Assembly: GCA_964420875.1 (NCBI GenBank)
Contig: CAYQUK010000001.1
Location: 9,946 to 73,945 of the forward strand
Source of the DNA: an uncultured Candidatus Saccharibacteria bacterium
Lineage (GTDB): Bacteria; Patescibacteriota; Minisyncoccia; Phycocordibacterales; UBA5272
Length of the DNA stretch: 64,000 bases
Direction of reading: 5' to 3'
Both the position numbers and the translations under genes were made by a program. The stretch's first letter is position 1. Each line of letters starts with the position of its first letter. Under the pieces are notes generated by a model. That model was not told where the DNA came from, made no database searches, and saw only the letters and a list, made by a program, of their open reading frames with translations. Shown one piece after another: positions 5,732 through 23,684 of the stretch.

Positions 5732-5748
5732 TATAATAAGTTTTAATT

Positions 5749-7429: not shown

Positions 7430-9217
7430 GTGAATATTCGTAATTTCTCCATCATAGCCCATATAGATCACGGTAAATCCACCCTAGCGGACAGGATGCT
7501 CGAGCTGACTGCGACTGTGGAAAAAAGAAAAATGCAGGAGCAAGTCCTAGACAGTATGGAGCTGGAGCGTGAGCGTGGCATAACTATCAAGATGACACCA
7601 GTGCGTATGGACTATACAGCAAAAGACGGTAAAGATTATATTTTGAACTTGATTGACACCCCAGGACATATAGACTTTTCTTATGAGGTGTCACGCAGTC
7701 TCCGTGCGGTGGAGGGGGCCGTGCTGCTTGTTGATGCTACTCAGGGTGTTCAGGCGCAGACAATGACAGTTCTTGAGATGGCAAAGGAGGCAGGACTGAC
7801 TATTATCCCAGTTGTGAACAAAATAGACAGCCCGCTAGCAAAGGTGGATGACACAAAAGATGAGATAGTAAAAATACTTGGCTGTAAATATGAGGACATA
7901 TACGCAGTGAGTGGTAAGACTGGTGAGGGTGTGATGGATCTGTTCGAAGTGATATGCAAAACAGTCCCAGAGCCAAAAAAGATTGATGTAAATGCAAAAG
8001 GGTCTCGCGCTCTCATATTTGATTTTGAATATTCTAATCATCAAGGCGTGATACTTTATGTGCGTATGCTGGACGGCGCTGTGCAGCGTAATGATGAGTT
8101 CGTATTCCTCCAGTCAAAAGCAAAGTTCATAGTAAAAGAGGTGGGATTTTTCAAACCTCAAAAGGTTGAGAACGGTAAGGTGACTGAGGGTGAGATAGGG
8201 TACATTGTGACGGGCATCAAAGAGCCTGGTGTGGCGCGTGTGGGAGACACAGTGACACCATTTGCGCATCAGATGACGGCCTTCCCAGGATATGCCGAGC
8301 CTACACCACTAGTGTTCGCGAGTATCTATCCAGAGTTCCAAGAGTATTTTGATGACTTACGTACAGCTCTCGGTAAACTTCGCCTATCTGATTCATCGTT
8401 AACATATGAAGAGGAAACTAGTGGGGCATTGGGGCGTGGATTTAGAGCTGGGTTCCTCGGGATGCTTCATATGGAAATAGTGACCGAGAGACTGAGACGC
8501 GAGTTTGGATTGTCTCTTGTCATCACTTCGCCGTCTATTACTTATGAGGTAACTGATAAGAACAACAAAACAGAAATGGTGTACACACCTATACATTTCC
8601 CAGATCACGGAGATGTTGCTAGTGTGCGTGAGCCGTGGATATTGACCACAGTTATCACACCACACAGATATATCAGTAATGTGATGGAGATACTTCATAA
8701 ACATGAGGCGACAGTTATGGAAATGGAGGACTGGGGATTTGAACGTGTCAAAATGATACTCGAGATGCCACTGCGTGAGCTGATGCGTAATTTCTTTGAC
8801 GAGATGAAGTCTGTGACTAGTGGTTATGCGTCTGTAGCATATGAAGGCAATGAGCTGCGTCCAGCAAATGTAACACGCATGGATGTTTATGTTGCCGAGG
8901 ACAGGATAGCTGCATTTTCAAAAGTTATACCTGAATATCGCGCACAAGAAGAGGCCGAGGAGGTAGTAGAAAAGCTTGAGAAAATACTTCCAAAAGAAAT
9001 GTTTCGCGTAAAGATACAGTCGTATATAAAGGGTCGCATAGTAGCCAGTCGTTCCATAGCTCCAATGAAAAAAGATGTGACAGGTCATCTGTATGGTGGA
9101 GATATTACTAGAAAGATGAAGCTACGCGAAAAACAAAAAGAGGGCAAAAAGAGAATGATGTCAGAAGGAAAAGTCCATATCAGTCACGATACTTTCCTAA
9201 AGATGATGAAGAACTAG
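7430..9217 (+). CDS. lepA: Translation elongation factor 4 (LepA)
   Basis: N-terminus NFSIIAHIDHGKSTLADR, DTPGHIDF, NKID G-motifs. 595 aa. GTG start. Confidence 0.9.
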   Translation: MNIRNFSIIAHIDHGKSTLADRMLELTATVEKRKMQEQVLDSMELERERGITIKMTPVRMDYTAKDGKDYILNLIDTPGHIDFSYEVSRSLRAVEGAVLLVDATQGVQAQTMTVLEMAKEAGLTIIPVVNKIDSPLAKVDDTKDEIVKILGCKYEDIYAVSGKTGEGVMDLFEVICKTVPEPKKIDVNAKGSRALIFDFEYSNHQGVILYVRMLDGAVQRNDEFVFLQSKAKFIVKEVGFFKPQKVENGKVTEGEIGYIVTGIKEPGVARVGDTVTPFAHQMTAFPGYAEPTPLVFASIYPEFQEYFDDLRTALGKLRLSDSSLTYEEETSGALGRGFRAGFLGMLHMEIVTERLRREFGLSLVITSPSITYEVTDKNNKTEMVYTPIHFPDHGDVASVREPWILTTVITPHRYISNVMEILHKHEATVMEMEDWGFERVKMILEMPLRELMRNFFDEMKSVTSGYASVAYEGNELRPANVTRMDVYVAEDRIAAFSKVIPEYRAQEEAEEVVEKLEKILPKEMFRVKIQSYIKGRIVASRSIAPMKKDVTGHLYGGDITRKMKLREKQKEGKKRMMSEGKVHISHDTFLKMMKN

Positions 9218-9349
9218 TACTGCTTAGTACAAGAAAGTAATAAAATAAGAAGCCACAAGTCCTAGCATCATGATGACTGCTACAACTGAGAAGACCACTC
9301 TTACTATTTTTTGGTTTTGAGATGAGAAAAACATGTTGTACACTATATC

Positions 9350-9757
9350 ATGTTAATGTCTGTCTATCAACAAAGGAAAATTTGGAAAATAATAAAATAT
9401 TCAAAACTTACAGGTTTGATATTTCTAGGTATAGCCATATATTTTGCTATGGAGTCATTGCAATTCTTACAAAAATGGGGTCAGTTGGACGAGAGATTGA
9501 CTGACGCAAAGAGCGAGAGACAGAGGTATGCCGAAAAGCTAAGTAAAAGACAGGGGGAATATGATTTCTTGCAAACAGAGCGTGGGAAAGAGGAATATCT
9601 ACGCAACAACATGCCAGTAGCAAAAGCTGGAGAAAAGGTGGTGATACTTTATGATGCCACATCTAGTCCGGTGCAAGTATTGTCAACGGAAATGCCTTGG
9701 TATGTGACGCTTTTTTCAAATATAAAATACTTTTTTGCAACTTATACCAATATCTAG
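9350..9757 (+). CDS. Septum-formation initiator family protein (FtsB/DivIC-like)
   Basis: 135 aa with one N-terminal TM, a coiled-coil segment, and a conserved KEEYLRNNMPVAKAGEKVVIL tail typical of FtsB/DivIC. Confidence 0.55.
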   Translation: MLMSVYQQRKIWKIIKYSKLTGLIFLGIAIYFAMESLQFLQKWGQLDERLTDAKSERQRYAEKLSKRQGEYDFLQTERGKEEYLRNNMPVAKAGEKVVILYDATSSPVQVLSTEMPWYVTLFSNIKYFFATYTNI

Positions 9758-9771
9758 TAAACTGACGATAT

Positions 9772-10026
9772 ATGGATACAACAACACAACAAGTAGAGAT
9801 TTACAGCACGCCGACATGTCATTTTTGTCACATGGCAAAGGACTGGTTCACAGCTAACAATGTATCATTTGTAGATCATGATGTAGCTGCTGATATGGAG
9901 CGCAGAAAAGAGGTGGTAGAGATGACGGGTCAAATGGGTGTACCAGTTATTAAAATCGGTAATGACATCATTATTGGTTTCAATCAACCAAAACTTGAGG
10001 AGCTTTTGAATATCAAAAGCGCATAG
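9772..10026 (+). CDS. Glutaredoxin-like protein (NrdH/YruB-like thioredoxin fold)
   Basis: 84 aa. CHFC redox motif near the N-terminus, GVPVIKIG motif. Confidence 0.75.
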   Translation: MDTTTQQVEIYSTPTCHFCHMAKDWFTANNVSFVDHDVAADMERRKEVVEMTGQMGVPVIKIGNDIIIGFNQPKLEELLNIKSA

Positions 10027-10036
10027 TATAAAAAAG

Positions 10037-10080
10037 TTTAGCCCCTAGGTCGCTTTGCGACCTAGGGGCTTTTCTTATTT
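10037..10080. terminator. Bidirectional rho-independent terminator
   Basis: Perfect 13-bp stem gcccctaggtcgc/gcgacctaggggc, flanked by an A-run upstream and a T-run downstream, between convergent genes. Confidence 0.8.
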
Positions 10081-10521
10081 GTTCAGCACATATACGCCAG
10101 CTAGCACCAGTACAGTGCCGGAGATTTTTTCGAAAGTGAAGCTTTCCTTGAAAAACATCACAGCACCGATACTGATAATCAGAGGCATCATAGCGAGTAC
10201 GATTGGGATCATTCTCGACATTTCTGCTGACCCATTTTGCGCCTGCTCGATCAGTCGGTAGAACAGTACCAGTCCTATACCGTTAACGATGCCGGCAACG
10301 ATCATCAATAGTCCTTTGGGTTGGGAGATGGTTACGACTATCTCGTTAGCGTTGCCACCAACGAGTGCGTACCACATCAGCGTCGCAAACGCTGTGCCGC
10401 TACCAATCAGTAATGCCATGATAGGGTATGGCATTGGTGCTGCACGTGCGAGGAGTGCGGCTGAACCAAAGAATACAGCGCACATCATAGCTGTGAAAGT
10501 GTTAGACATTATGGTCTCCAA
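10075..10521 (-). CDS. Small DMT/EamA-like 4-TM membrane protein
   Basis: 148 aa, 4 hydrophobic helices with an EamA-half-like pattern. GC content is visibly higher than in neighbouring genes. Confidence 0.45.
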   Translation of the reverse strand: METIMSNTFTAMMCAVFFGSAALLARAAPMPYPIMALLIGSGTAFATLMWYALVGGNANEIVVTISQPKGLLMIVAGIVNGIGLVLFYRLIEQAQNGSAEMSRMIPIVLAMMPLIISIGAVMFFKESFTFEKISGTVLVLAGVYVLNK

Positions 10522-10681
10522 AGCTTAGGAACATTCCTGTTCAGAATCCTATCACAAAAGTAAAATCTTGACATCTATTGCAATATTTTATGTATTGATG
10601 TAATATTTGCATTAGATTGTTCATGTGCTCGTATAGACAAAAAGCAATCGCCAATCCATCGTCACTACTCAGGAGACATTC

Positions 10682-11167
10682 ATGAAGAAACGACACAGTT
10701 TGGCGGCATTCTTTGCTGCCGCACTCGCAAGTATCGGCCTCGCAGCGAGCGCTGCCCAGCCCGACAAGGTCGTCTCGACCCAGATCGACAATCCCGTTGC
10801 AGGTGCAGCTGAAAAACAGTTGCCAGCAATTTCCGTAACTGCTGCACAGGTCTGCGACAAAGAAGTGCCCGCGCAGTACAACGCCATGGACGGCGTGACG
10901 CTGCAAATGAGCTCGAATGTCGCCTCGGTTCAGTACGGCAAGTATCACGGTGCGGCACCCAATGGCACGCCGATAATGCGCACGTCATCGCCGACGGTAA
11001 CGTTCGACCCCCGAACGGCGAAGCCTGTTTATGTTTTGAGTTCCATTTCCAGCGCGTCTCAGGCCAACGTTCAGGCTGCCGTCGGCCGAGGTCATCACGA
11101 TGCCTCAGCCGCGAGCAAGTTCTCGTTCTCGAATCAACCGTTTGCCGGCATCGTCGTTACGACCTGA
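10682..11167 (+). CDS. Secreted hypothetical protein encoded in a GC-rich islet
   Basis: Signal peptide MKKRHSLAAFFAAALASIGLAASAA. AGGAG Shine-Dalgarno 8 nt upstream. Codon usage is strongly GC3-biased, unlike the rest of the window. The minus-strand overlapping ORFs are Arg-rich and look like frame artefacts. Confidence 0.55.
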   Translation: MKKRHSLAAFFAAALASIGLAASAAQPDKVVSTQIDNPVAGAAEKQLPAISVTAAQVCDKEVPAQYNAMDGVTLQMSSNVASVQYGKYHGAAPNGTPIMRTSSPTVTFDPRTAKPVYVLSSISSASQANVQAAVGRGHHDASAASKFSFSNQPFAGIVVTT

Positions 11168-11298
11168 CTTCTCCGCTTGGGCACCACGTAGCCTTGGCTA
11201 CGTGGCCAACAACCTATGCGCACTGGGAGATTAAAAATCTTTCAGTGCGCACAACAAACTCTTTTCAACTCAAAAGGTTGCGAGGCGTTTTTTTTATT

Positions 11299-11373
11299 TG
11301 GTGTCCTCGGCAGGAATTGAACCCACATCAATCCCTTAGGACGGGACTGTTCTATCCGTTGAACTACGAGGAC
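11299..11373 (-). tRNA. tRNA-Arg (anticodon CCU), CCA encoded
   Basis: Reverse complement folds as gtcctcg|ta|gttc-aacggata-gaac|a|gtccc-gtCCTaa-gggat|tgat|gtggg-ttcaatt-cctgc|cgaggac|a|cca. Confidence 0.7.
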
Positions 11374-11393
11374 AATGGTGTATACTATATCAC

Positions 11394-11678
11394 ATGAACA
11401 CACAGGAACAAATGGATGAGCTGATGCGCTTGACCAAGGAAAACAACAAGATGTTGCACTCGCTCAAAACTCATGCCAACGTAGGCATAGTTTTAAAATC
11501 ACTGTATTGGATAATTGTTCTCGGTTTTGTTTTCGGGGCGTATTATTATTTGCAGCCAATTATGGATCTGTTCACAGGGGACACACATGTTACTGACGAG
11601 GCGGTAAATAGATTTAGTCAGGTTGTGCCTATTATCACTAGATTCAAGGAGTTTTTCACCTCTTTAAATACCAATTAA
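11394..11678 (+). CDS. Hypothetical small membrane protein
   Basis: 94 aa, one central TM helix, host-like AT-rich composition. Confidence 0.4.
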   Translation: MNTQEQMDELMRLTKENNKMLHSLKTHANVGIVLKSLYWIIVLGFVFGAYYYLQPIMDLFTGDTHVTDEAVNRFSQVVPIITRFKEFFTSLNTN

Positions 11679-11699
11679 TTTGTGATAATATGGTGGGAT

Positions 11700-11775
11700 G
11701 CTTGGATAGCTCAGTTGGTAGAGCGCTTCCCTGAAGAGGAATAGGTCCCCAGTTCGAGCCTGGGTCCAAGCACCA
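11700..11775 (+). tRNA. tRNA-Phe (anticodon GAA), CCA encoded
   Basis: gcttgga|ta|gctc-agttggta-gagc|g|cttcc-ctGAAga-ggaat|aggtc|cccag-ttcgagc-ctggg|tccaagc|a|cca. Confidence 0.8.
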
Positions 11776-11782
11776 CAAAATA

Positions 11783-11812
11783 AAAACTATCGAGATTATC
11801 GATAGTTTTTAT
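11783..11812. terminator. Bidirectional terminator
   Basis: aaaactatcg-agattat-cgatagtttt with A/T runs on both sides, between tRNA-Phe (+) and hsp20 (-). Confidence 0.65.
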
Positions 11813-11821
11813 TTTATTTAT

Positions 11822-12355
11822 TTAAATGCTTTTTACTTTTATCTTTGCTTGTCTCGCTTTGTCTACTTTTGGCATTCTGATTATAAGTAGTCCATGCTTC
11901 TCGACTGCCTCAGCCTCCTCGATCTCAATCTCATGAGGGAGTAGTATGGTGCGAGAGAAATTGCCCCAATACAATTCACGATAGAAATAGTCATCATCAG
12001 CCACTTGTCCATTAGCCTCACGGCGACCTTTGATAGTTACCATGTCACGAGTGATAGACAGGTGTAGGTCTTCTGGTTTTACTCCTGCTACCATGGCTTC
12101 AATTATTATTTCTGTGCCTGTCTGATATACATCAACAGATAGCTCGCCGACCTCTTCTTCATACTCGTCCTCAACAGCAACATGAGCTGGTCTTTTTACA
12201 GCTTTTGTCTCAGGGGCACTACGACGAGTTTTCATTGGCATCTCGTCCTCATCATCCATCTCATCACTATTAATATCGATGATGTCCTCGTCATCATCTT
12301 CTACTGTTATAGACCCAGCGAGTCTTTCAAAAAAAGTTTTTTTGTCTTTGAGCAT
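11822..12355 (-). CDS. Hsp20/alpha-crystallin small heat-shock protein
   Basis: Alpha-crystallin domain (VDVYQTGTEIIIEAMVAGVKPEDL...GLLIIRMPK) with an acidic N-terminal extension. 177 aa. Confidence 0.8.
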   Translation of the reverse strand: MLKDKKTFFERLAGSITVEDDDEDIIDINSDEMDDEDEMPMKTRRSAPETKAVKRPAHVAVEDEYEEEVGELSVDVYQTGTEIIIEAMVAGVKPEDLHLSITRDMVTIKGRREANGQVADDDYFYRELYWGNFSRTILLPHEIEIEEAEAVEKHGLLIIRMPKVDKARQAKIKVKSI

Positions 12356-12530
12356 GTTGAAATAAAATTATTCTAATACTTGTAGTATATAGACAATATT
12401 TACTCGTTACTAGACAAAAACCAAATCTAACTGTGGATAGGGAATGTTCTGGTATTTTGTTTTTAAATATTTTAAATGCTAGTATTAAATAAGTACTGCA
12501 TCCGTGGTACGTCTACTCTGGGAGAAGTGT

Positions 12531-12968
12531 ATGAAAGTGATTCGTGTTTTGGGGCTCCTGCTTTTGGGGCTCATCTGTTCTTTTTTGCTGGTGCTGGCAC
12601 CAGATCTCGGTTCGGGGCTGAAAGCGTCCGGCACCAACGTTGCGTGGTTGAACATCTGTGCCCTAACTGGCATCGGTCTGGCTGCTTCGGTGCTGTTCGT
12701 TGAAGTCTTTCCGAAAGGTCACGTCAGTGGTTTGCATTTTCCGCAGTCGCTCTCGCTGGCTCTTATGGCAGCCTCGTTAGTCGTTGGATTGATCTCCTCC
12801 GTTTCTGTGCTCACGACTGACTACTCCGGGAACTCGGCAGCCGGTCAGATATTGGCTCGTTCATCGATACTGCTCTCCTTCGTCATGGCGACAGTAGCCA
12901 CACACCTTTCGGTCGCACTCTTCCGCTACGGCGAAAAGCTTCCTGTTCAAGACGGTGTAGCTGCTTAA
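12531..12968 (+). CDS. Hypothetical 4-TM membrane protein in a second GC-rich islet
   Basis: GC-rich codons. Start chosen at ATG 12531 (MKVIRVLG...) with a purine-rich GGGAGAAG Shine-Dalgarno-like sequence upstream. The tabulated ORF 12504..12968 is in the same frame with a longer N-terminus. Confidence 0.45.
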   Translation: MKVIRVLGLLLLGLICSFLLVLAPDLGSGLKASGTNVAWLNICALTGIGLAASVLFVEVFPKGHVSGLHFPQSLSLALMAASLVVGLISSVSVLTTDYSGNSAAGQILARSSILLSFVMATVATHLSVALFRYGEKLPVQDGVAA

Positions 12969-12991
12969 CGCGAAAGCTGACGCAGTCAAAA

Positions 12992-13020
12992 AAGGCGACC
13001 TTCGGGCCGCCTTTTTTCTT
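12992..13020. terminator. Bidirectional terminator (UUCG tetraloop)
   Basis: aaggcgacc-ttcg-ggccgcctt flanked by A6 and T6 runs. Serves the 12531 gene (+) and valS (-). Confidence 0.7.
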
Positions 13021-13028
13021 TTGATATT

Positions 13029-15182
13029 TTATTGGATAGGCCAAGGCTCGATAATTAGGTCCTTGTTTTGATTTTCAAAGTATTGCCACAGCTCCTCGGT
13101 GATGAATGGCATGAATGGATGCAGGGTGATAATGTTTTCACGCAATATTGTCATCAGTAATACCTTTGCAGAGTCAGCGTCCTCATTGTTTTGTATACGT
13201 AGTTTGTGTGTCTCAATTATCACATCACAAAAAGTCTTCCAAAAATAGTCATATATTTTCTCGCTGGCTATGTGAAGTTTGTATTCCTCTATATCAGTTG
13301 TTATCTCTTTTAACTTTTCTTGCCAAGCTTTATACAGGTTTGTGTCTATCTCGTTTAGAGGGGTATCATATTTTATGCCTTCACATTTTTCAAATACAAA
13401 TCTAGTAGCATTCCAGATTTTGTTAGCAAATTTTTTATAAGCTTCTACTTTTTTAGGGTCTAGGTTCATATCTACTCCTGGAGCATTATTAACAATTAGG
13501 CCCATACGTAAAGCATCGGTACCATATATGTCAGATATTTCTAGTGGAGATATTACGTTACCTTTACTTTTGCTCATTTTCATTCCTTTAGCGTCTCGTA
13601 CTAGCCCGTGTAGATATACATCTTTAAATGGAGATTTACCTGTTGTGTATATACCAAGCATTATCATACGCGCTACCCAGAAAAATAGTATGTCAGCACC
13701 TGTCTCCATTAACTGTGTAGGGTAATATTTTTCAAAATCACCATCACGTGTGTTTTGTAATGTTGCAAATGGCCATTGTCCAGACGAGAACCATGTATCA
13801 AATGTATCTGTGTCCTCGGCTAGATCTGAATTACATTTTTCGCATTTTGTTAATTTATTTTCAATGTCTACATATCCAGAGTCACAATTGGTACATATCT
13901 TTGCAGGTATTTTTATACCCCATACTATTTGTCTAGAGATGTTCCAATCTTGTATGTTTTCCATCCAATGGTTGAAAACTTTTTCATGTTGCTCCGTTAA
14001 TATATTCACTTCTCCATTTTTGGCAGCAGCCATAGCTTTTTCTGCTAGTGGCTTCATGCTTACAAACCATTGCGCCTTAATCTGCGGCTCTATTTCACGC
14101 TCACATTTATAACATACAGGCACTTCATGTGTGTACTTATCTTCAACTTTTACCAGTAATCCTTTTGCGTCCAGTTTTTCTACTATTTTTGAACGAGCAT
14201 CTTTTATGCTCATACCAGCGAACTCGCCAGCAATAGGTAATAGTTTGCCGCGCTCATCTATTATTTGTTCCCAATCTAAATTATGTCGTTTAGCTATTTC
14301 AAAGTCTATTGCTGAATGCCATGGTGTTATTGTCATAGCCCCAGATCCTTTTTCTGGGTCGCCAGCAATATCTTTTATCACTGTAGCTTCTATTTCACCA
14401 CTGATCCATTCGAGTTTTATTTTTTGACCATGAGTGAATTCTGCGTACCGTGCATCGTCAGGGTGTACTACGACGTATTTGTCTCCGAACTTCGTCTCTG
14501 GCCTTACTGTACCTATTGTAAATGGTCCGTATTTAAAATAGTAGAACGGATCTATTTTCGTTTTATACTCTGTCTCTAGATTAGACAGTGAAGTCTGATG
14601 CTTGCTACACCAGTTCACAATTCTCTTTCCACGATATAACAACTTGTCATCTTCTAATTTCTTAAAAGTTTTATACACTGTTTTTATTATGCCATCGTCC
14701 AGTGTGAATACCTCACGTGACCAGTCACAACTAGCACCGAGCTGGCGTATTTGCCCTTCCATGAACTGTTTGTTGAAAAGTGTAAAATCCATTATCTCTT
14801 TATATAGATCTGCGCGTTCCATATCAAATCTTGACCTACCTTCTTTTTCTAATTTCTTCTCGTATACAACTTGAGTTTCAAATCCTGCATGATCTGCTCC
14901 AGGCAACCAAAGTGCACGATAGCCATTCATTCTTTTATATCTTGTTAAGATGTCTTGGATTGTTACAAACAACGCATGTCCAGCATGTAGAGATCCATTA
15001 GCATTTGGTGGTGGCATTATTATTGTATATGTTTTTTCTTTGCCATTATCATCAAGCCTTATTTTATCTTGTGGTAATTTGTCCGGGTTAAAATATCCAG
15101 ATTCTTCCCATTTCTTATATATAGCAGGCTCGACACTCTTTGCGTCATAGGGCTTTTTCAAATTTTCTATATTTGTATTCAT
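13029..15182 (-). CDS. valS: Valyl-tRNA synthetase, compact form lacking the C-terminal coiled-coil
   Basis: PPPNANGSLHAGHAL (HIGH) and KMSKSKGN (KMSKS). CP1 editing-domain region present. 717 aa. Confidence 0.85.
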   Translation of the reverse strand: MNTNIENLKKPYDAKSVEPAIYKKWEESGYFNPDKLPQDKIRLDDNGKEKTYTIIMPPPNANGSLHAGHALFVTIQDILTRYKRMNGYRALWLPGADHAGFETQVVYEKKLEKEGRSRFDMERADLYKEIMDFTLFNKQFMEGQIRQLGASCDWSREVFTLDDGIIKTVYKTFKKLEDDKLLYRGKRIVNWCSKHQTSLSNLETEYKTKIDPFYYFKYGPFTIGTVRPETKFGDKYVVVHPDDARYAEFTHGQKIKLEWISGEIEATVIKDIAGDPEKGSGAMTITPWHSAIDFEIAKRHNLDWEQIIDERGKLLPIAGEFAGMSIKDARSKIVEKLDAKGLLVKVEDKYTHEVPVCYKCEREIEPQIKAQWFVSMKPLAEKAMAAAKNGEVNILTEQHEKVFNHWMENIQDWNISRQIVWGIKIPAKICTNCDSGYVDIENKLTKCEKCNSDLAEDTDTFDTWFSSGQWPFATLQNTRDGDFEKYYPTQLMETGADILFFWVARMIMLGIYTTGKSPFKDVYLHGLVRDAKGMKMSKSKGNVISPLEISDIYGTDALRMGLIVNNAPGVDMNLDPKKVEAYKKFANKIWNATRFVFEKCEGIKYDTPLNEIDTNLYKAWQEKLKEITTDIEEYKLHIASEKIYDYFWKTFCDVIIETHKLRIQNNEDADSAKVLLMTILRENIITLHPFMPFITEELWQYFENQNKDLIIEPWPIQ

Positions 15183-15281: not shown

Positions 15282-15725
15282 ATGCAAAAAACACAATCAA
15301 AGATAAGCAAGGCAGACAGCAATCATATATTTAAAAAAGTAAAAGCTAAAAAGGGGGTAGATGGACTAGGGCTATTTGCTGCTGAGGATATCAAAAAGGG
15401 CGAGATCATAATCGAGTACACTGGCAATATATTGTTAGGCAAAGAGTCTCGTGAGGCCAAGGCCAACATGTATCTGTTTGAGATTAATAGAGACAAGACC
15501 ATAGACGGGTCACCAAGGTGGAATCTGGCGAGATATTGCAACCATAGTTGTGATGGTAATGCAGAGAGCGAGATTAAAAAGGGGCGCGTATTTATAATCG
15601 CTACAAAAAATATAAAAGATGGTGAGGAGATAGTCTATGACTATGGCAAGGAGTTCTTTGAAGAGTACATTGCTCCAAAGGGCTGCATGTGTGGTACTAA
15701 AAAGTGTAAAAAACCGAGACAGTAG
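15282..15725 (+). CDS. SET-domain protein-lysine N-methyltransferase
   Basis: GLGLFAAEDIKKGEII, NHSCDGNA (NHSC pseudoknot motif), EEIVYDYG (ELxxDY-like), and a post-SET Cys cluster CMCGTKKC. Start at the internal ATG of the tabulated ORF 15210..15725. Confidence 0.7.
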   Translation: MQKTQSKISKADSNHIFKKVKAKKGVDGLGLFAAEDIKKGEIIIEYTGNILLGKESREAKANMYLFEINRDKTIDGSPRWNLARYCNHSCDGNAESEIKKGRVFIIATKNIKDGEEIVYDYGKEFFEEYIAPKGCMCGTKKCKKPRQ

Positions 15726-15760
15726 ATATATAGGGTGTTATACTTTGAGTATATTAGCGT

Positions 15761-17692
15761 ATGCCAGTATCACCAACAGCGCCACCTTTAACACGTAGTC
15801 CGGCACCAGCTCCACCTGACAGATTAGATGCCAGTTTTTGGGAGTCTGAGTTTAATAGAAGAGAAGCAAGAGTAGAAACTTTTATTAATTTAGCCTTCAT
15901 TCAATATAAAACAAATATTGATTCCAACATCGAGGATGCTGATAGGCTTTATAATCAGGAAATAATAGATGCTGTTGAGGAGATTTATGATATCGATTTT
16001 CCTGCTGACTATGAGGTAGATGCCAGCACAAAGACTCAACCAGAAAAGAAAATGATAAAGGGTAAGTTAAAAGATCTGCGAACCCGTAAAGAAAAGGTTA
16101 TTAGGGGCTGTATGGATAGATCCCCTTTTGGTTCGCGTAAAGATGAGATAAAAGATGCCAAAGAAAATACTTTAGAAAAAATAGCTGAGAGAAATAGGGT
16201 AAGTCTCGGTAAAATTAGATCCGCTGTCGGCACTTCTTATAAAAATATTGCAAAAGTTTTAGGAGATATAGAAAAAAGAAAAAATGAAGGTAAGAAAATT
16301 TCAGATGCAGAAAGAATAATTTTCGAAGAAGATGTTAGTCGCAACTTGTCAGAGTATCAAACAAGCATGGCTAGCCTCGATAGGTTAATGAGTATACCTG
16401 CTACTGATAGAGCTTGTCTGATGTTGGCTGGTTCAGCTACTCCAGACTCTGAGCAAATTAAATTTGTAGATACTATTAACACTATAAAAACTCAGGTTGA
16501 GGGTGCCGGTCCAGCAGACCCTAATTCTATTTTAGTAAAGATTAAAACTTCATTAGATAAGCCATTTGACGAAACAAAAGAAAAGTTTGTAAAAGCTGCT
16601 GAGTCTATGGATGCTATTACAAAGCAACTACAAAAAATCCAGTCAGACATAGAAGAAGAAATAAAGAAAGAGAAAAAAGTTGACCCAGACAATAGGGCTG
16701 AATTTTTAATGCGTATAAGTATGGAAGAGTCCAATCTTGATCTGGCTAGGATTGATTTTGCGAACGCTTGGACAAAGCTCAGTGTAGACTTGATGGCAAT
16801 AGGGGAATTACCAACACCAAAACAATTTGGACAACATGACGCTCTGGAGAGTCGAGATAATTATTTGCGAAATGACCTTATTGTTAAGTTGAAAGAAAAA
16901 GTTAATGGGCATATTTCTCCGAAAGATCAACGTGAGAATGCGAAGTCTTTAAATACACGTGTGAGTGATATAGAAAAAATGATGAAGACTGATTATGACA
17001 GTCTAGAGATAGGTAAGGGGTATACAGATAGCCAAAAAGACACATATAGGATACTCATAGACGTCGAAGAGATAGCTATTGCTGATATGGAGGAAGAGTT
17101 AACACATTTAACACCTGTCGTAGATGACCCAACAAAAACAATGATAGAAGGTGTGGTGTTGAGAGCTAAAGAGAGAATAGAAAAAGCTAAAGAAAAAGTA
17201 GAAAAGAAAAGAGTCGCAAAAGAAAAAGAGATACAAGAAAAATTTGACTCAATAGATAAAGGCATAGAGGAAGTTGAGAGCAGGTTAAGAGATATAACCA
17301 GAAAAGATGCAGAGGGTAAAGCTCAGTTTGAGGAAAACAAAGAGCGTGCTGGAGTATTACAAAAACTTTGGGCACCAACTAAAAAGTATGACGGTGGCAC
17401 AAAATACCAAGACCACGCGTCTATGGTTGATACTTTGTTTGATCCAAGAGAAGAATCTAATAAAGTAAAAGAGTGGATAAAAGATTTACCAGAAACAAAT
17501 GAAGGAGAGTTAAAGTTGAAAAAGAAAATGATGAAAAAAGCTCGTCGTTTATCTAGAAGAATAACCTCAGCTAAGTGGAGACATTATTTTTCAATGGATA
17601 CAAAAAATCAAGCAAAGTATTGGGGAGATATGGCGAGGAATAAAACTTTTGACATAATGGGTAATGCTATAGATAGAATTGTTTACCCATAG
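15761..17692 (+). CDS. Large hypothetical protein. Pro-rich N-terminus, then a highly charged K/E-rich predicted coiled coil. No TM helix.
   Basis: 643-aa ORF with no recognisable catalytic motifs. Heptad-like charged segments. Confidence 0.5.
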   Translation: MPVSPTAPPLTRSPAPAPPDRLDASFWESEFNRREARVETFINLAFIQYKTNIDSNIEDADRLYNQEIIDAVEEIYDIDFPADYEVDASTKTQPEKKMIKGKLKDLRTRKEKVIRGCMDRSPFGSRKDEIKDAKENTLEKIAERNRVSLGKIRSAVGTSYKNIAKVLGDIEKRKNEGKKISDAERIIFEEDVSRNLSEYQTSMASLDRLMSIPATDRACLMLAGSATPDSEQIKFVDTINTIKTQVEGAGPADPNSILVKIKTSLDKPFDETKEKFVKAAESMDAITKQLQKIQSDIEEEIKKEKKVDPDNRAEFLMRISMEESNLDLARIDFANAWTKLSVDLMAIGELPTPKQFGQHDALESRDNYLRNDLIVKLKEKVNGHISPKDQRENAKSLNTRVSDIEKMMKTDYDSLEIGKGYTDSQKDTYRILIDVEEIAIADMEEELTHLTPVVDDPTKTMIEGVVLRAKERIEKAKEKVEKKRVAKEKEIQEKFDSIDKGIEEVESRLRDITRKDAEGKAQFEENKERAGVLQKLWAPTKKYDGGTKYQDHASMVDTLFDPREESNKVKEWIKDLPETNEGELKLKKKMMKKARRLSRRITSAKWRHYFSMDTKNQAKYWGDMARNKTFDIMGNAIDRIVYP

Positions 17693-17885
17693 TAACTCAA
17701 AAAACTTAATATATTAATTTGCAAATGCAAAGCATTCGCATTTAGTAAATATGAGTTATCCACAAGTGAATATGTGTAAAAGTATTGTGTGAAATTTTAA
17801 GCATGTGATACTTGAATGGAGAGTGATACGATCATGGTCAAATCAATGCTAGCACTCTCGCAAAAAAATTTACATTACATATACT

Positions 17886-18038
17886 ATGGCAGTAACAAAA
17901 AAGAAAACAGCTAAAAAAGTTGCGAAGAAATCTCCAGCTAGAAAGGTTGCTAAAAAAGCAGTTAAGAAAACTGCTAAGAAGGCAGTCAAGAAAGCAGCAA
18001 AGAAATCTCCAGCTAAAAAAGCTGCTAAAAGAAAATAG
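17886..18038 (+). CDS. Histone H1-like / Hc1-like lysine-alanine-rich DNA-binding protein (50 aa)
   Basis: Translation MAVTKKKTAKKVAKKSPARKVAKKAVKKTAKKAVKKAAKKSPAKKAAKRK: AKK/SPAKK repeats as in H1 C-tails and bacterial Hc1/AlgP/BpH1. Below the 60-aa cutoff of the ORF table. Followed by a clean terminator. Confidence 0.55.
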   Translation: MAVTKKKTAKKVAKKSPARKVAKKAVKKTAKKAVKKAAKKSPAKKAAKRK

Positions 18039-18059
18039 TTTTAAACACGATTTTCTAAC

Positions 18060-18088
18060 AAAACCCTCGCATCCCACGCGAGGGTTTT
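18060..18088 (+). terminator. Rho-independent terminator
   Basis: aaaaccctcgc-atcccac-gcgagggtttt. Confidence 0.75.
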
Positions 18089-18106
18089 GTATACTATAAA
18101 ATACAA

Positions 18107-19159
18107 ATGATGTTCGACACTCAATCCTATATGAATATAGGTCTCGATATAGGTGATACAGGCATAAAGCTCGTCGAGCTATATAGGAGAGGCGACTCAC
18201 TACAACTGGGTACATATGCTGAGGTTATGCTCGGTACATATGCTGGTCGTGAAGCAGGAGAGATAACCAGGCTCGGTGAAGAGAAATTGAGATATGCAGT
18301 AAAAGACGCTTATACTGGAGCAAAAGCCGTTGCAAAAAATATAACAGTTGGACTGTCTATGGGGTCTTGCCAATTGATACATCTCACTTTACCAAAAGCA
18401 GCGGAAAGTATACTCGAGACTGTTGTACCTATTGAGGTCAGGAGATATGTGTCTATACCTTATTCAGAGTTAATAGTCTCTTATGAAAAGTTGCCACCAC
18501 ATCCACATCAAAAAGAAGACAGTCTAAACATCTTAGTATTAGCCGCAAAACAAAGTTCGGTTGATATGTTGCATCGCATAGTGGATAACATAGTGCCAGA
18601 GGCAGAGGTGATAGTAGAGCCCGGCATCTTTGGGGCTCTACGATCTATACCGTTAGACAAAAACAAAGTTAGTCTAGTTATTGATCTCGGCGCTACATTA
18701 ACTACCGTAGCCTTTGTATACGAAGGTGTATTGTATGGCGTCGAGACAACTATGAAGGGTGTATATAGTATAACTGAACATATAAAAGAGTCTCTAGGTA
18801 TGACATTCACCGAAGCAGAACTGATGAAAAAGGAATACGGCATACTCGGGTCACCTGCTCAGCCACTATTGCGTGATGTGGCAGTATTTGCTGCGAGGAG
18901 GGTGATAGAAGAAGTTATACACATACGTTCTCGCTTCGAGACGAGGTATACTACTACATGTACAGACGTATGGTTAACGGGAGGAGGTGCTCGTACAAAA
19001 GGTATACAAGAATTATTTACTCAGGAGACGGGGCTAGATGTAAAAATAGCTCGCCCGTTTGAAAGAGTGGAGATACCTAAAACTTTAGAAGAAAATCTTT
19101 TAGAAGGTTCACCAAGTTTCTCTCATGCTATTGGTCTAGCAATGTCACGTTTAATTTAA
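18107..19159 (+). CDS. pilM: Type IV pilus assembly protein PilM (actin-like ATPase fold)
   Basis: IGLDIGDTGIKLVEL N-terminus. 350 aa. First gene of the pilMNO arrangement. Confidence 0.75.
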   Translation: MMFDTQSYMNIGLDIGDTGIKLVELYRRGDSLQLGTYAEVMLGTYAGREAGEITRLGEEKLRYAVKDAYTGAKAVAKNITVGLSMGSCQLIHLTLPKAAESILETVVPIEVRRYVSIPYSELIVSYEKLPPHPHQKEDSLNILVLAAKQSSVDMLHRIVDNIVPEAEVIVEPGIFGALRSIPLDKNKVSLVIDLGATLTTVAFVYEGVLYGVETTMKGVYSITEHIKESLGMTFTEAELMKKEYGILGSPAQPLLRDVAVFAARRVIEEVIHIRSRFETRYTTTCTDVWLTGGGARTKGIQELFTQETGLDVKIARPFERVEIPKTLEENLLEGSPSFSHAIGLAMSRLI

Positions 19160-19163
19160 TTTT

Positions 19164-19898
19164 ATGCCACCACTAAGAACAACAACTTTTGTAGCGAAGC
19201 CAGCCAATGCAGTGCTTGAGGCAAAACCAGTCGATCCATTTTTCATATTAGGTTGTGTTTTTGTTGGGGCATCATTACTTTTTACTTTGTCTGCGTATGG
19301 TTACGGTTTATTAACAGAGTCCAACACAACAAAGATACAAGGTGAAATACAAAACATAGAGCAGGATCTCAAAAAGTATCCCCTGCAAGACATGTTGAAT
19401 TTCAATACAAAAATGACTACTGTTCAAGCCCTGCTTCGTAATCACACTTTCCCAGAGACTATATTCGCCGCACTTAGTAGTGGTGTTGAGAAAAATGTCT
19501 ATTATAATAGTTTTAGTTTGACGTACTCTCCTGGTGTTGGCCATACATTAGTATTGTCAGCTATTGCACCAGACTATGCCTCTGTTGCTAGACAAATAGA
19601 TGCTTTGAAAAATACAGCTTATGGCTCATTGTTTAAAAACGTAGAAATGACGTCTCTGGGCGATGACCAGTTTGGCAATAAGTTGGTAGATATACGCATA
19701 ACAGTAGCTGGAAGTTTGAGAAAATTTGACCTACCTACTACTGTTAGATCTATTAATGGTACCGTAAATACTTTACCATCTATTGTAACAACACCTACTA
19801 ATATAGGTACTCCGTCTGTTAGAATAGATACTCCTTTACCGCCAGCTGCCACAACAACCGCTGCGACATCAACCAACACATCATTAGAAAACCTATGA
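19164..19898 (+). CDS. pilN: PilN-like pilus assembly protein
   Basis: Single N-terminal TM, then coiled-coil, with a Thr/Pro-rich tail. Position after pilM. Confidence 0.5.
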   Translation: MPPLRTTTFVAKPANAVLEAKPVDPFFILGCVFVGASLLFTLSAYGYGLLTESNTTKIQGEIQNIEQDLKKYPLQDMLNFNTKMTTVQALLRNHTFPETIFAALSSGVEKNVYYNSFSLTYSPGVGHTLVLSAIAPDYASVARQIDALKNTAYGSLFKNVEMTSLGDDQFGNKLVDIRITVAGSLRKFDLPTTVRSINGTVNTLPSIVTTPTNIGTPSVRIDTPLPPAATTTAATSTNTSLENL

Positions 19899-20488
19899 AA
19901 CAATCATACATAAATTTAGCACTGTTTGCGCTCGGAGGACTCATAATGTGGTTCTTTGCTTTTCCTCTTTATGCCGGCAATGGACAAAGTATTTTGAATA
20001 GAAAATCAGTGATAGATTTGAATAAAGAAAATGCACAAAAACAAAACGAATTAAAATTGGCAAAAGATTTACAAGAGAGAGCGGCAGAAGAGACTGCTGC
20101 CTATGAAGCTATAGACACTGATTTGAAAGAAAAAATAAATAAAATGATATTTACGACAGTAGATATACCTAGGCTATTTAATGACATATCTATTTTAGTT
20201 AAAAATTCTGGATTAAAAATGGGGGCTATAAGCTATAGCAAAACATCTGCTCCAGACGGACTCAATCAGCTAAACTCTTACAAAATAAGTTTAAGTGTTA
20301 GTGGCGACTATTTAAAATTTAGAGAGTTTATGAAATCTATGCAAAACAGTTTGCAATTGTATAGAATCAGCTCTATATTTTTCACTTCTGTTAAATCTAC
20401 AGACACTAGAAACACTCAGGATCCTAGCGGTATATCTGGGGGGCAGAAATTTAATATAGTTTTTGATGTTTATGAATTTAAAAATTAA
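19895..20488 (+). CDS. pilO: PilO-like pilus assembly protein
   Basis: N-terminal TM, coiled coil. Position and size match PilO. Confidence 0.5.
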   Translation: MKQSYINLALFALGGLIMWFFAFPLYAGNGQSILNRKSVIDLNKENAQKQNELKLAKDLQERAAEETAAYEAIDTDLKEKINKMIFTTVDIPRLFNDISILVKNSGLKMGAISYSKTSAPDGLNQLNSYKISLSVSGDYLKFREFMKSMQNSLQLYRISSIFFTSVKSTDTRNTQDPSGISGGQKFNIVFDVYEFKN

Positions 20489-20496
20489 TAACTAAT

Positions 20497-20832
20497 ATGA
20501 AAATAAATTTTGATTTTTTGAATGATGTAAAGCTTGTAATATCTGGAGGGACCTTGGTTATACTTTTAACATTGACCGGATACATAGTTTATACTCAGAT
20601 TAATGATGAGGCTGTTTCGGGGGGGTCAACATTACAAGGTGAATTTTTCAATATGATTAGTAAATTTAACACAGAAAATATACGTTTTGAAAATGCTAAT
20701 CAAGCGTTGCGTGAGGCTACAGAAGACATGAATTCAACAAAGAATTTTATATGTCCAATAGATTCATCTGATCCCAAAGGTGAGAGATGTCCTTTGGGTG
20801 CTGGAGAGAGATCTGACCCATTTGCTCCATAA
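20497..20832 (+). CDS. Small TM protein in the pilus operon (PilP-like position)
   Basis: 111 aa, one TM helix, sits between pilO and pilB. Confidence 0.35.
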   Translation: MKINFDFLNDVKLVISGGTLVILLTLTGYIVYTQINDEAVSGGSTLQGEFFNMISKFNTENIRFENANQALREATEDMNSTKNFICPIDSSDPKGERCPLGAGERSDPFAP

Positions 20833-20840
20833 TAAGTTTT

Positions 20841-22598
20841 ATGTTAATCATCAATGAATTAGTACGAGCTGGTGTGATTAACGATTTGATAGCTCGCGAC
20901 GCCGAGCTGTCTTTTACTAATGGTGAGACTACAACAATAGACGAAGCATTGCTGCAAAGAGGTGTACAAGGAGAAGTGCTGAGAGCAAAACGTGCTGAGA
21001 TGTACGGGTTATCAGAGTACACAAAATCAATATTCGTTGATCCTGAGGCAGCGAGTCTCGTGCCAGAGGAGATAGTGAGGCGCACTCATGCTCTACCTAT
21101 AGAGACAGTGCAAAAACGAGATCACGTTCTCGTCGGTATAGTTGACCCAGAGATACCGGATGCATTAGATATATTGCAAACAACATTGGGTGCAAAAAAT
21201 GCCCGATATCGTTTGGTGGTTATAACTTACCAGCAATTTTTGCAAGGTCTGGATAGCTATCTCAGCTCACAAAAAGTTCAAATGGGAGACGAGTCTATAA
21301 AATTAAAATCTCCTAGTATGATGTTAGAAGAGGTGACGAAAGACGTAGTAAAAAAAGATGATGGAGAGGAGGAAGATTTGGACTTGACTACAATAGATGG
21401 CACCATTACACCAGAATTAAAAAATGAATCAGTGGGAGTTATTGTGAATACATTGATACGTCATGCTATAGATGAGTCCGCATCAGATATACACATAGAA
21501 CCAGGAGACAAAAACATGAGAGTTCGCATGCGTATAGACGGTATATTAGAAGAGGTGATATCTTTTCCTGCGTACATAGAGCAAACAATAACAGCTAGAT
21601 TTAAAATACTTTCTAATATGAGATTGGACGAAAAGAGAAAGCCTCAAGATGGACGTTTTTCTTCAAAACTTGATAATCATAAGGTGGATTTTCGTGTATC
21701 TGTTATGCCTTCTTATTATGGCGAGAAAGTGGTTATACGTATCCTCGACTCTTTTAGAGGGGTAAAACCATTGAATGAAATCGGTTTTTCAGAGGCACAT
21801 TTGAAAGATATACGACGTGCACTTGAGAGGCCGTATGGTATGGTTTTGATATCTGGGCCAACAGGATCAGGAAAGACAACTACCCTTTATTCGATGTTAA
21901 ATGAGATAGACAGAAAGACTCGCAATGTGGTATCTCTTGAGGATCCGGTGGAGTACAAATTGGGCGATGTCACACAGTCACAGATATTCCCAGAGATTGG
22001 ATATACTTTTGCAACAGGGTTGCGTTCAATATTGCGTCAGGACCCGGATGTAATTATGGTGGGAGAGATACGTGATGCAGAGACAGCTCAACTAGCTATT
22101 CAGGCCGCACTCACAGGTCACCTTGTGTTTTCTACTATTCACACCAACAATGCCGCGGGTGTTGTGTCGCGCCTCAAAGATATGAATGTTGATCCGTATC
22201 TGATAGCTCCGACATTGTGCCTAGCTGTAGCGCAGCGTCTGGTACGAAAGATCAGTCCTTCGTCTGAGAATCCACTGGTTATGGATCCAGCAAAGAAGGC
22301 TTTGATAGATGAGGTTTTCAAGGATTATCCAGAAGAGTTTAAAAAAGATTTGAAACTCGATAGACCACTACATGAAGCCATTCCTTCCCCTATGAGTCCA
22401 ACAGGATTAAAAGGTCGTATACCAGTAGTCGAGACTATGTATATAGAGGACGACATACAAGAGGCAATACTCAACAATAAAACAGATGATGAGTTGTGGG
22501 CCTTGGCAGCAAAGAGGGGTGCCATATCTATACAACAGGATGCAGTTTTGAAATCAATGGATGGTCTTGTTCCTTTTGTGGAAATCAATTCACTTTAA
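20841..22598 (+). CDS. pilB: Type IV pilus assembly/extension ATPase PilB (GspE family)
   Basis: Walker A GPTGSGKTT. Asp/His boxes. N-terminal GSPII_E-like domain. 585 aa. Confidence 0.85.
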   Translation: MLIINELVRAGVINDLIARDAELSFTNGETTTIDEALLQRGVQGEVLRAKRAEMYGLSEYTKSIFVDPEAASLVPEEIVRRTHALPIETVQKRDHVLVGIVDPEIPDALDILQTTLGAKNARYRLVVITYQQFLQGLDSYLSSQKVQMGDESIKLKSPSMMLEEVTKDVVKKDDGEEEDLDLTTIDGTITPELKNESVGVIVNTLIRHAIDESASDIHIEPGDKNMRVRMRIDGILEEVISFPAYIEQTITARFKILSNMRLDEKRKPQDGRFSSKLDNHKVDFRVSVMPSYYGEKVVIRILDSFRGVKPLNEIGFSEAHLKDIRRALERPYGMVLISGPTGSGKTTTLYSMLNEIDRKTRNVVSLEDPVEYKLGDVTQSQIFPEIGYTFATGLRSILRQDPDVIMVGEIRDAETAQLAIQAALTGHLVFSTIHTNNAAGVVSRLKDMNVDPYLIAPTLCLAVAQRLVRKISPSSENPLVMDPAKKALIDEVFKDYPEEFKKDLKLDRPLHEAIPSPMSPTGLKGRIPVVETMYIEDDIQEAILNNKTDDELWALAAKRGAISIQQDAVLKSMDGLVPFVEINSL

Positions 22599-22625
22599 TA
22601 CTAGTCGTTAGTATATACTGTCATT

Positions 22626-23684
22626 ATGGATAGCGCTCAATTACTCGATACTATTATTATGTCCCTGGTGAAGGAGACTGGTTCAGATATACATCTCGTG
22701 AGCGGTGTGTATCCGGCTATTAGAGTGCATAGTGAGATATTACCTCTCACTAAATTAAAAATACTTGACCCCACTGACACACTTGGCTGTTTGCGTGAGA
22801 TGATCAATGACACACAGTATGAGATGTTGATACACAATCAACAGTTGGATTTTGCATATACACATCGTGGCGAGTATCGCCTTCGTGGGAATGCCTTTTT
22901 CCAAAAAGGCAGCATAGCTGTTGTTATGCGTCTCATTACAAAGATAAAATCTCTGGGTGATCTTAATTTACCAGATGTGTTGTTAGACTTTGCACACAGG
23001 AAACAAGGATTCTTTTTAGTTGTGGGTCCGGTGGGTCAAGGTAAAACGTCTACTCTCGCAGCAATGATAGATGACATCAATCAAAAAGACAGAAAAATGA
23101 TAGTCACTATCGAGGACCCAATAGAGTATATTTATGAGCCAAAGAATAGTTATATAATGCAACGTGAAGTTGGTTTTGATACTTTAGATTTTGAGTCAGG
23201 ATTGCATGCGTCATTCAGACAAGATATAGATGTTTTACTTATTGGTGAGATGCGCAATACAGAGACAATGCGTGCGGCTGTTACTGCTGCTGAGACAGGA
23301 CATCTTGTGTTCTCTACTTTGCATACAAACTCTGCTAGTCAGACTATTGATCGTATTATTGACAGCTTTCCAGCTGAACAGCAGGGTCAGATCAGGTCAC
23401 AATTGGCAGCGTCTTTGATCGGTATTTTCTCGCAGCGTCTCATACCAAAAATAGGAGGGGGACTGGTTCCGGCATATGAATTGCTAGTTGCGACTCCGGC
23501 GGTACAAAACTTGATCAGAGAGAAAAGGACTTTTGAAATAGATACAGTTATAGAGACTGGTAGAGAAAATGGTATGATTAATTTTGATAGTTGTCTTTCT
23601 GATCTTGTTAGACGTGGAGACATAACTTTAGAGTCGGCCATGAGAATAGCTAAAAATCCAAAAGTGTTTGGTGAGATGCTATAG
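22626..23684 (+). CDS. pilT: Twitching-motility retraction ATPase PilT
   Basis: VGPVGQGKTSTLAAMID Walker A, LVFSTLHTNSASQTIDRI. 352 aa. Confidence 0.85.
   Translation: MDSAQLLDTIIMSLVKETGSDIHLVSGVYPAIRVHSEILPLTKLKILDPTDTLGCLREMINDTQYEMLIHNQQLDFAYTHRGEYRLRGNAFFQKGSIAVVMRLITKIKSLGDLNLPDVLLDFAHRKQGFFLVVGPVGQGKTSTLAAMIDDINQKDRKMIVTIEDPIEYIYEPKNSYIMQREVGFDTLDFESGLHASFRQDIDVLLIGEMRNTETMRAAVTAAETGHLVFSTLHTNSASQTIDRIIDSFPAEQQGQIRSQLAASLIGIFSQRLIPKIGGGLVPAYELLVATPAVQNLIREKRTFEIDTVIETGRENGMINFDSCLSDLVRRGDITLESAMRIAKNPKVFGEML

Follow-up and report, generated by a model that had tools for sequence, protein, structure and literature searches.

Bacterial SET-domain enzymes have mostly been discussed as effectors directed against host histones, and to our knowledge clear endogenous substrates for them are few. 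Among the described prokaryotic systems, cpnSET of Chlamydia pneumoniae has been reported to bind the histone-like proteins Hc1 and Hc2 and to methylate Hc1, Go1-SET of Methanosarcina mazei methylates the chromatin protein MC1-alpha, and BaSET acts on H1 (PMC3980110). NUE, the orthologue from C. trachomatis, did not methylate Hc1, and the chlamydial results have been called discordant (PMC6426960). Here we describe a locus in a 64,000-nucleotide stretch of DNA from an uncultured Candidatus Saccharibacteria bacterium (contig CAYQUK010000001.1; the window hereafter), in which a gene for a SET-domain lysine methyltransferase is followed by one for a lysine- and alanine-rich micro-protein (the K/A peptide). 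A preliminary description of the window had treated SET-mediated methylation of Hc1 and Hc2 in Chlamydia as established; with cpnSET active on Hc1 and NUE not, that wording is too strong, because the chlamydial data are discordant (PMC3980110, PMC6426960). The three open reading frames (ORFs) that it delimited, all on the plus strand and with that of 50 amino acids (aa) two genes downstream of the SET gene, were recovered as follows:

15282 to 15725, plus strand: SET-domain lysine methyltransferase gene, 147 aa, with a SET core and a post-SET zinc cluster (Pfam PF00856, KMT2 alignments)
15761 to 17692, plus strand: gene for a lysine- and glutamate-rich, all-alpha orphan protein of 643 aa, a lineage-specific insertion outside the conserved pair
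17886 to 18038, plus strand: K/A-rich micro-protein gene, 50 aa, with orthologues in 44 loci and a coding signature

We are highly confident of the descriptive account that follows, namely the identity of the SET protein, the existence of a conserved micro-gene, its linkage to the SET gene, its regulatory anatomy and the exclusion of the orphan. The overall explanation that we prefer is a two-gene system in which the SET enzyme methylates a separately controlled, polyanion-binding K/A peptide, and we regard it as evenly poised between right and wrong. Taken by itself, the methylation step, which is drawn from neighbourhood conservation and from the Chlamydia and Methanosarcina precedents, is plausible but somewhat doubtful.

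Such a system would work most like cpnSET with Hc1 or Go1-SET with MC1. As in Chlamydia, a bacterial SET enzyme is paired with an endogenous lysine-rich, H1-like protein, here a putative DNA condenser. Unlike Hc1 and Hc2, which are 125-237 aa long and have Pfam families of their own (PF07432 and PF07382), the K/A peptide matches neither family; no comparable adjacent micro-gene cassette has been reported in Chlamydia, and host lineage and lifestyle differ. The Go1-SET system likewise combines a minimal prokaryotic SET enzyme with a small endogenous protein that binds DNA, as the K/A peptide may, but MC1 is a folded archaeal protein of ~90 aa, whereas the K/A peptide is a low-complexity repeat. 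Relative to both precedents, the putative substrate is domain-free and only 21-58 aa long, the gene pair is conserved across dozens of species, and the control region is elaborate. A search of the available literature returned no account of a SET-K/A pairing, nor of SET domains in connection with Patescibacteria or its subgroups; a single paper has 'SET domain' and 'candidate phyla radiation', once each and in another context.

At every sequence level compared, the product of the SET gene reads as a member of the SET family. It matches Pfam PF00856 over profile positions 1-105 of 105 (86.3 bits, E 2e-24, cutoff 22.4), and its best solved relatives are the SET and post-SET regions of KMT2D, KMT2C and KMT2A (E 1e-19 to 1e-16). 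The motifs GLGLFA, RYCNHSC, GEEIVYDYG and CMCGTKKCKK align to MLL, so that the NHSC, ELxxDY-like and post-SET cysteine signatures on which a bona fide SET domain had been proposed are all present. G28-L-G30, N87-H88-S-C90 and E116-I-V-Y119-D-Y121 match KMT2D residue for residue and are invariant in 24 homologues, the invariant residues including N87, H88, C90, Y119, D120, Y121, C135 and C137. Post-SET C135-M-C137-GTKK-C142 pairs with CHCGAWNC of KMT2D, and C90 of the NHSC motif together with C135, C137 and C142 is predicted to form the zinc cluster. The SET and post-SET layout and the GxG, NHSC, YDY and CxCx4C motifs are thus shared with KMT2/MLL enzymes; unlike these, the protein is a stand-alone 147-aa enzyme with no WRAD-binding or other domains, and in most orthologues the last post-SET cysteine is replaced by histidine (CxCx4H instead of CxCx4C). 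Most orthologues also carry an additional lysine-rich N-terminal tail of ~40 aa. An alternative start at 15210 (171 aa) is possible, but the homologues align from MQKTQSK. An AlphaFold2 (AF2) model built on a 24-sequence alignment was of low confidence (predicted local distance difference test, pLDDT, 63) and was not used. The protein search gave 323 close matches, the top 120 at 62-98% identity, and at least 568 SET loci were confirmed among the 599 pattern matches listed from species-representative genomes, nearly all of them Patescibacteria; the view that SET domains are rare in bacteria consequently fails for this lineage. A second, divergent SET-domain gene of 131 aa is inserted beside tRNA-Phe in locus L001 (1584-1979), that of the closest relative. 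At the corresponding junction of the window (11775, just past tRNA-Phe at 11700-11775) there is no insert, and the window has a single SET gene.

The 50-aa protein has the sequence MAVTKKKTAKKVAKKSPARKVAKKAVKKTAKKAVKKAAKKSPAKKAAKRK and consists of (A/V/T)(A/V/T)KK tetrapeptide repeats with two SPA(R/K)K motifs, a composition resembling that of the H1 C-terminal tail. Comparison with Pfam and NCBIfam, Hc1, Hc2 and H1 included, gave no match at E values up to 1, although the composition correction of HMMER may suppress low-complexity matches; PHROG and PADLOC searches likewise yielded nothing. No match was obtained to the hidden Markov model (HMM) of the H1 winged helix (PF00538) either, and 50 aa of uninterrupted repeats leave no room for the H1 globular domain. 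The likeness to H1 and Hc1 suggested earlier therefore holds for tail composition and not for family membership or a globular domain. A homology search with the peptide produced 4394 candidates, none of them significant, probably owing to low-complexity correction, and an exact look-up of four K/A peptides in a protein collection found none present.

Stand-alone proteins resembling H1 tails include kinetoplastid H1, Pseudomonas AlgP, and Coxiella Hq1 and ScvA, which are basic, of low complexity, devoid of a globular domain and associated with DNA or polyphosphate. They are mostly longer than the K/A peptide, with KPAA or other repeat types, and we know of none whose gene adjoins a SET gene or has a DnaA-box promoter or a structured-leader cassette. 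The K/A/P repeats of HbhA and HupB carry methyl-lysines that protect against proteolysis. The K/A peptide shares K/A(/P)-rich AKKA/PAKKA repeats with these mycobacterial proteins; unlike theirs, which are tails on an HU fold or a coiled coil and have no linked SET gene, its repeat is the whole protein. In HbhA and HupB, DNA binding irrespective of sequence requires the AKKA repeats, which also suffice for it (PMC10665949).

Orthologues were sought around 80 SET loci, obtained through pattern matches in a species-representative collection (one genome per species) and fetched with 10-kb flanks, together with the contigs of the closest relative. All were scanned on both strands for ATG-to-stop ORFs of 18-80 aa with at least 30% K and at least 88% K+A+V+T+S+P+R, over 1.39 Mb of SET-centred sequence. 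The scan yielded 44 K/A ORFs of 21-58 aa, from 41 species-level genomes and three metagenome contigs; the related contigs are labelled as Paceibacterota, Nomurabacteria or 'Saccharibacteria' metagenome-assembled genomes, which places the window in the Patescibacteria (CPR). Pooled composition is 47% K, 29% A and 11% V. The N-terminus MA(A/V)..KK and the C-terminus AKR(A/K) are kept across the 44 loci, the consensus being MAAKKKAAKKVAKKAVKK...AKRA in general and MAVTKKK...AKRK in the group of the window; at one locus where the two genes adjoin directly, the peptide is AAKKKAAKKVAKK...AKRA. No correlation was seen between the post-SET variant (Cys or His) and the termini of the K/A peptide.

Substitutions among same-length orthologues fall at codon positions 1/2/3 in the numbers 61/51/168, and the changed codons comprise 138 synonymous and 83 non-synonymous cases. 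Stops are absent from the K/A frame, three of the other frames containing 74-88 and the remaining two 20 and 9. L029 and L040 encode an identical 37-mer from DNA that differs at 8 synonymous sites. The gene is identical at the DNA level among the window, L001 and L003, and its use of the lysine codon AAG (36% in the window, against 32% genome-wide) is uninformative on expression. To judge from conservation in 44 loci, third-position bias and the absence of in-frame stops, the 50-aa ORF is a real coding gene, as the preliminary description had supposed.

All 44 K/A ORFs lie downstream of a SET gene and on its strand, with none elsewhere in the 1.39 Mb. The gap between the SET stop and the K/A gene is 189-548 nucleotides (nt) in 34 loci and 0.9-3.7 kb in 10, the window included, and the contigs of two additional loci (L022 and L038) end within the upstream control region of the cassette. 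The pair is followed by a SecA-like gene in 25 loci, by genes for hibernation-promoting factor and a peptidyl-prolyl isomerase (HPF-PPIase) in 7 and by PilMNO in 6; it is mostly preceded by a valyl-tRNA synthetase (ValRS) gene on the minus strand, and in L033 by a glutamyl-tRNA synthetase (GluRS) gene on the plus strand. At least six distinct insertions have occurred between SET and K/A, and the pair has not been dispersed. Two of the three cassettes recovered independently of SET have ValRS-SET directly upstream; as a reverse test of linkage this is weak, because true cassettes made up only 3 of the 120 matches listed in a metagenome scan by cassette pattern, the rest being mostly chance matches. 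What is conserved is a neighbourhood of two genes and not of three: in related genomes the SET-K/A part of the arrangement first described is kept and the three-gene set is not.

Several observations weigh against a functional partnership of the two genes. The chlamydial precedent is disputed (PMC6426960), and the K/A peptide matches the HMM of no histone-like family. HSP20-ValRS-SET is about as widely conserved as SET-K/A, so that much of the SET-K/A adjacency may be inherited synteny. The two are transcribed as units of their own, with terminators following SET, and the interval between them tolerates insertions. L006-L009, which belong to the same clade, retain SET-(other gene)-HPF-PPIase with no cassette within 6-10 kb; some 30 more distant SET loci (with an intact SET gene likewise in L052-L082) are also without it. 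L178 has a divergent cassette and no SET gene within 10 kb, so the micro-gene family reaches beyond the SET neighbourhood. The conserved synteny, the separate units, the tolerated insertions and the loci with one of the two genes only favour an explanation by inherited synteny alone, in which the K/A peptide is a general nucleoid or polyanion binder and the target of the SET enzyme lies elsewhere, for instance in a ribosomal protein, a translation factor, a pilin, another nucleoid protein or the enzyme's own lysine-rich tail. The pair nevertheless stays joined while its upstream (ValRS or GluRS) and downstream (SecA, HPF-PPIase or PilMNO) contexts change, and the K/A peptide is always the sole lysine-rich protein within 10 kb of these SET genes; we therefore consider synteny alone an unlikely explanation, if one to be taken seriously.

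The intergenic region before the K/A gene, together with the sequence after it, contains the following elements:

17718 to 17743, no strand assigned: imperfect palindrome TTTGCAAATGC-AAA-GCATTCGCATTT, upstream of the K/A promoter
17756 to 17764, plus strand: DnaA-box 9-mer TTATCCACA, perfect consensus and the sole copy in the 64-kb window
17785 to 17812, plus strand: predicted promoter TTGTGT-N16-GATACT, with TGt before the -10 (extended -10), read from the sequence
17819 to 17885, plus strand: 5' leader with an outer stem GAGAGT (17819-24)/ACTCTC (17854-59) and, within it, a small hairpin whose loop is GGUC (17836-39)
18058 to 18090, plus strand: intrinsic-terminator hairpin acaaaaccctcgc-ATCCCAC-gcgagggttttgt, with a conserved loop

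The DnaA box is the most constant of these. Against the consensus TTATNCACA, a perfect TTATCCACA is found in 43/43 cassettes, 127-154 nt before the ATG, and in 42 of the 43 it stands 52-57 nt ahead of the leader stem. It occupies the same position in the cassette-bearing loci L001-L051, L073, L117 and L158, and 45 boxes occur at cassettes as against 19 elsewhere in 1.4 Mb. This distribution suggests replication-coupled control of a histone-like gene. A reading of the box as part of a replication origin was rejected, since there is a single box in 64 kb and no inversion of GC skew, the cumulative skew rising on both sides of the site.

The palindrome has the consensus TTATGCAAAT..(CTTCG/GAA)..ATTTGCATAA in relatives, 20-30 nt upstream of the DnaA box, and could be an operator or a hairpin. 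Some 27 of 45 cassettes have it and the L041-L051/L073 subclade lacks it, as counted by eye because the automated finder, which did not call the copy in the window, often chose unrelated A/T-rich repeats. The promoter arrangement TTGT(G/A)T ... TGn(C/G)ATA(C/A)T recurs at equal distance in all aligned intergenic regions and would represent an extended -10 promoter for the K/A gene. A consensus promoter scanner made no call at 17785-17812, because the -35 element matches the consensus at only 3/6 positions.

The leader starts approximately at the expected transcription start, and its stem is followed by an A/T-rich stretch, with no Shine-Dalgarno sequence before the K/A ORF. RNAalifold predicted no pairs on the gappy MAFFT alignment of the leaders, and covariation was assessed instead by per-sequence folding with explicit counting of pairs. 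All leaders adopt the same fold; 87.8% of leader cells are paired, against 28-48% in slid controls, and the observed values were reached by 0-4 of 500 shuffles. In the inner helix, 6/8 pairs show compensatory changes (e.g. UGAUCAU/GUGAUCA, UGAUCGU/GCGAUCA and GACC/GGUC). An Rfam search of 17650-18150 gave only sub-threshold matches, mostly at the terminator. The leader is peculiar to the K/A gene and has the look of a cis-regulatory RNA motif not described before. The idea of a regulon, with the motif also preceding SET or other genes, was rejected, the motif being confined to the K/A gene.

The terminator stem covaries between loci, and its loop, (C)TCCCA(C/T), is kept in ~40/43, which is unusual for an intrinsic terminator. 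In 30 loci such a hairpin, with a stem of at least 6 pairs, is situated no more than 120 nt from the K/A stop; the other 41 matches are mostly short chance stems, and the hairpin type is specific to the K/A gene. A terminator-like hairpin follows SET in at least 17 of the 32 directly adjacent loci. By its predicted promoter, leader and terminator the K/A gene is a transcription unit of its own, and a single transcription unit for the co-directional block is not supported.

The conserved 5' hairpin with its invariant GGUC loop and the predicted strong promoter would also fit a K/A peptide that is not a chromatin component at all but a small RNA-binding or ribosome-associated protein, autoregulating through its leader in the manner of ribosomal-protein leaders; AKKA repeats occur in mycobacterial RplV as well (PMC10665949). 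We consider this improbable: close relatives differ in repeat number and in length (21 to 58 aa), which is unusual for a stoichiometric ribosomal component, and no ribosomal protein family in Pfam or NCBIfam shows similarity. That the ORF is untranslated, marking a small structured RNA or arising by chance in A-rich sequence, might be argued from the missing Shine-Dalgarno, the structured 5' end, the terminator and the absence of the peptide from the searched protein collections, but this was rejected as very improbable on the coding signature above (third-position bias, synonymous excess, open frame, identical peptides from differing DNA and termini conserved across 44 loci), and neighbouring genes of this genome lack a Shine-Dalgarno too.

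The 643-aa orphan, 35 nt behind the SET gene in the window, has no match in Pfam, NCBIfam, PHROG or PADLOC, as expected of a protein that had been described as lacking recognisable domains. Searches of 5.8 billion clustered proteins and of 1.84 billion representatives gave one relative and 11 relatives, respectively. At the SET locus it is found only in the window and in L001-L005 (identity 80% in L003, 58% in L001, 45% in L004 and 34% in L005), and none of the 34 loci with directly adjoining SET and K/A genes has it. AF2 models the protein as a succession of long helices (pLDDT 81, predicted template modelling score 0.41). Foldseek (best E ~1) and a profile search, both run against PDB, returned only coiled-coil or spectrin-repeat-like noise for it. 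A homologue, P0122 (34% identity), is encoded beside a UvrD-like helicase in L203; this contig and the one with SET locus L009 are distinct but belong to one assembly. Other genes occupy the same interval elsewhere: L001 has an additional 441-aa membrane protein between SET and K/A, and L010, L012, L014 and L023 have assorted unrelated ORFs. The interval between SET and K/A is a hot spot of insertion. The proposed three-gene module of writer, scaffold and substrate, to which the shared orientation, the close spacing and the 35-nt SET-orphan gap would lend themselves, is accordingly hardly credible: the orphan is missing from the directly adjacent loci, replaced by unrelated genes in other lineages and represented far from SET in the genome of L009, and orphans of the window, L001 and L003 are 58-80% identical (58% for the window and L001) despite identical K/A DNA.

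In the mechanism that we prefer, the K/A peptide would be an abundant, sequence-nonspecific polyanion binder, of DNA first and RNA second, functionally analogous to the C-terminal tail of H1 and to the AKKA repeats found in HupB and HbhA of mycobacteria. The DnaA box at a fixed distance from the promoter would couple its expression to replication, the 5' stem-loop leader with its GGUC loop may serve mRNA stability or autoregulation, and the dedicated terminator would end the transcript. The SET enzyme would most likely methylate lysines of the peptide, tuning charge, binding or protease resistance, and the lysine-rich N-terminal tail of most orthologues would place those on the same polyanion. 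The 643-aa helical protein would have no part in this system, being the product of a fast-evolving gene inserted at the hot spot in this lineage.

A candidate endogenous enzyme of 147 aa is here paired with a candidate substrate, a synthesizable peptide of 20-57 residues, so that direct in vitro tests can ask whether, and to what end, a bacterium methylates histone-like proteins of its own. The pairing extends over dozens of uncultured species (more than 40 with the pair) in a very large bacterial radiation, and it brings to light a widespread micro-protein with a conserved control region of DnaA box, structured leader and fixed-loop terminator; in ultra-small cells this protein may be among the main constituents of the nucleoid. 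Even if the linkage were mere synteny, a new small basic protein family and a regulatory RNA motif would have been added to Patescibacteria. A broader and much more tentative reading, which we think rather unlikely, is that many Patescibacteria of the Paceibacteria/Nomurabacteria type possess a 'writer plus tail' chromatin, made up of a DnaA-timed, H1-tail-like micro-protein under leader and 3' stem-loop control and methylated by SET. The mature N-terminus of the K/A peptide, A-V-T-K (A-A-K-K in most relatives), may in this respect echo the A-R-T-K of histone H3 that is read by MLL-type enzymes. If true, these bacteria would have their own, domain-free version of a histone supply coupled to replication and of methylation on histone tails.

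The divergent cassette of L178 lies on the minus strand (10354-10477 of the reverse complement) and has a CTTATCCACA box, promoter, GAGAG..CTCTC leader and terminator around a 41-aa ORF beginning MATKKKVAKRPAKK... Among the distant SET loci without a K/A cassette, four have a conserved basic ORF of 42-44 aa, with no Pfam match, on the opposite strand and 1.3-4.7 kb from SET: L057 (14981-15115, minus), L063 (15020-15148, minus), L074 (11651-11779, minus) and L077 (12203-12331, minus). Its form is MGKRATSLGPKKKS..KKRLA.KK.ML..RAAKKKKR in L063 and L074 and MAWNPGKQGVSPKKKRKSPPKTKKRL... in L077, of which that of L057 is a variant.

In L203, P0122 lies within a run of large unannotated ORFs (2805-13896; 976, 82, 631, 315, 523 and at least 860 aa), a region that may be variable or mobile. 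Between SET and K/A, L011 (11995-13357) and L047 (5977-7375) carry an ORF with a weak Pfam match to a bAvd-like four-helix bundle; the neighbouring ORF is reverse-transcriptase-like by eye, with no match to a reverse transcriptase family, and the insertion may be a diversity-generating retroelement.

The window has a G+C content of ~38-41%, and its nearest genome fragment, L003, shares 87-92% DNA identity with it. Directly after the K/A gene it carries a type IV pilus cluster (18107-23684) with PilM (18107-19159), an unassigned 244-aa ORF at the place of PilN, PilO and two ATPases of the T2SSE family (PilB/PilT-like). This PilM-type context is common only to the window, L001-L005 and L033, with SecA or HPF-PPIase found elsewhere. 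Upstream of SET and divergent from it, the ValRS gene (13029-15182, minus strand) has a body (13430-15061) that is ~60% identical in protein to those of L001 and L003 and not alignable to them as DNA, between flanks of 88-92% DNA identity. The same body is 84% identical in protein and ~77% in DNA to that of L004, an otherwise more distant locus, a pattern that looks like allele replacement by recombination.

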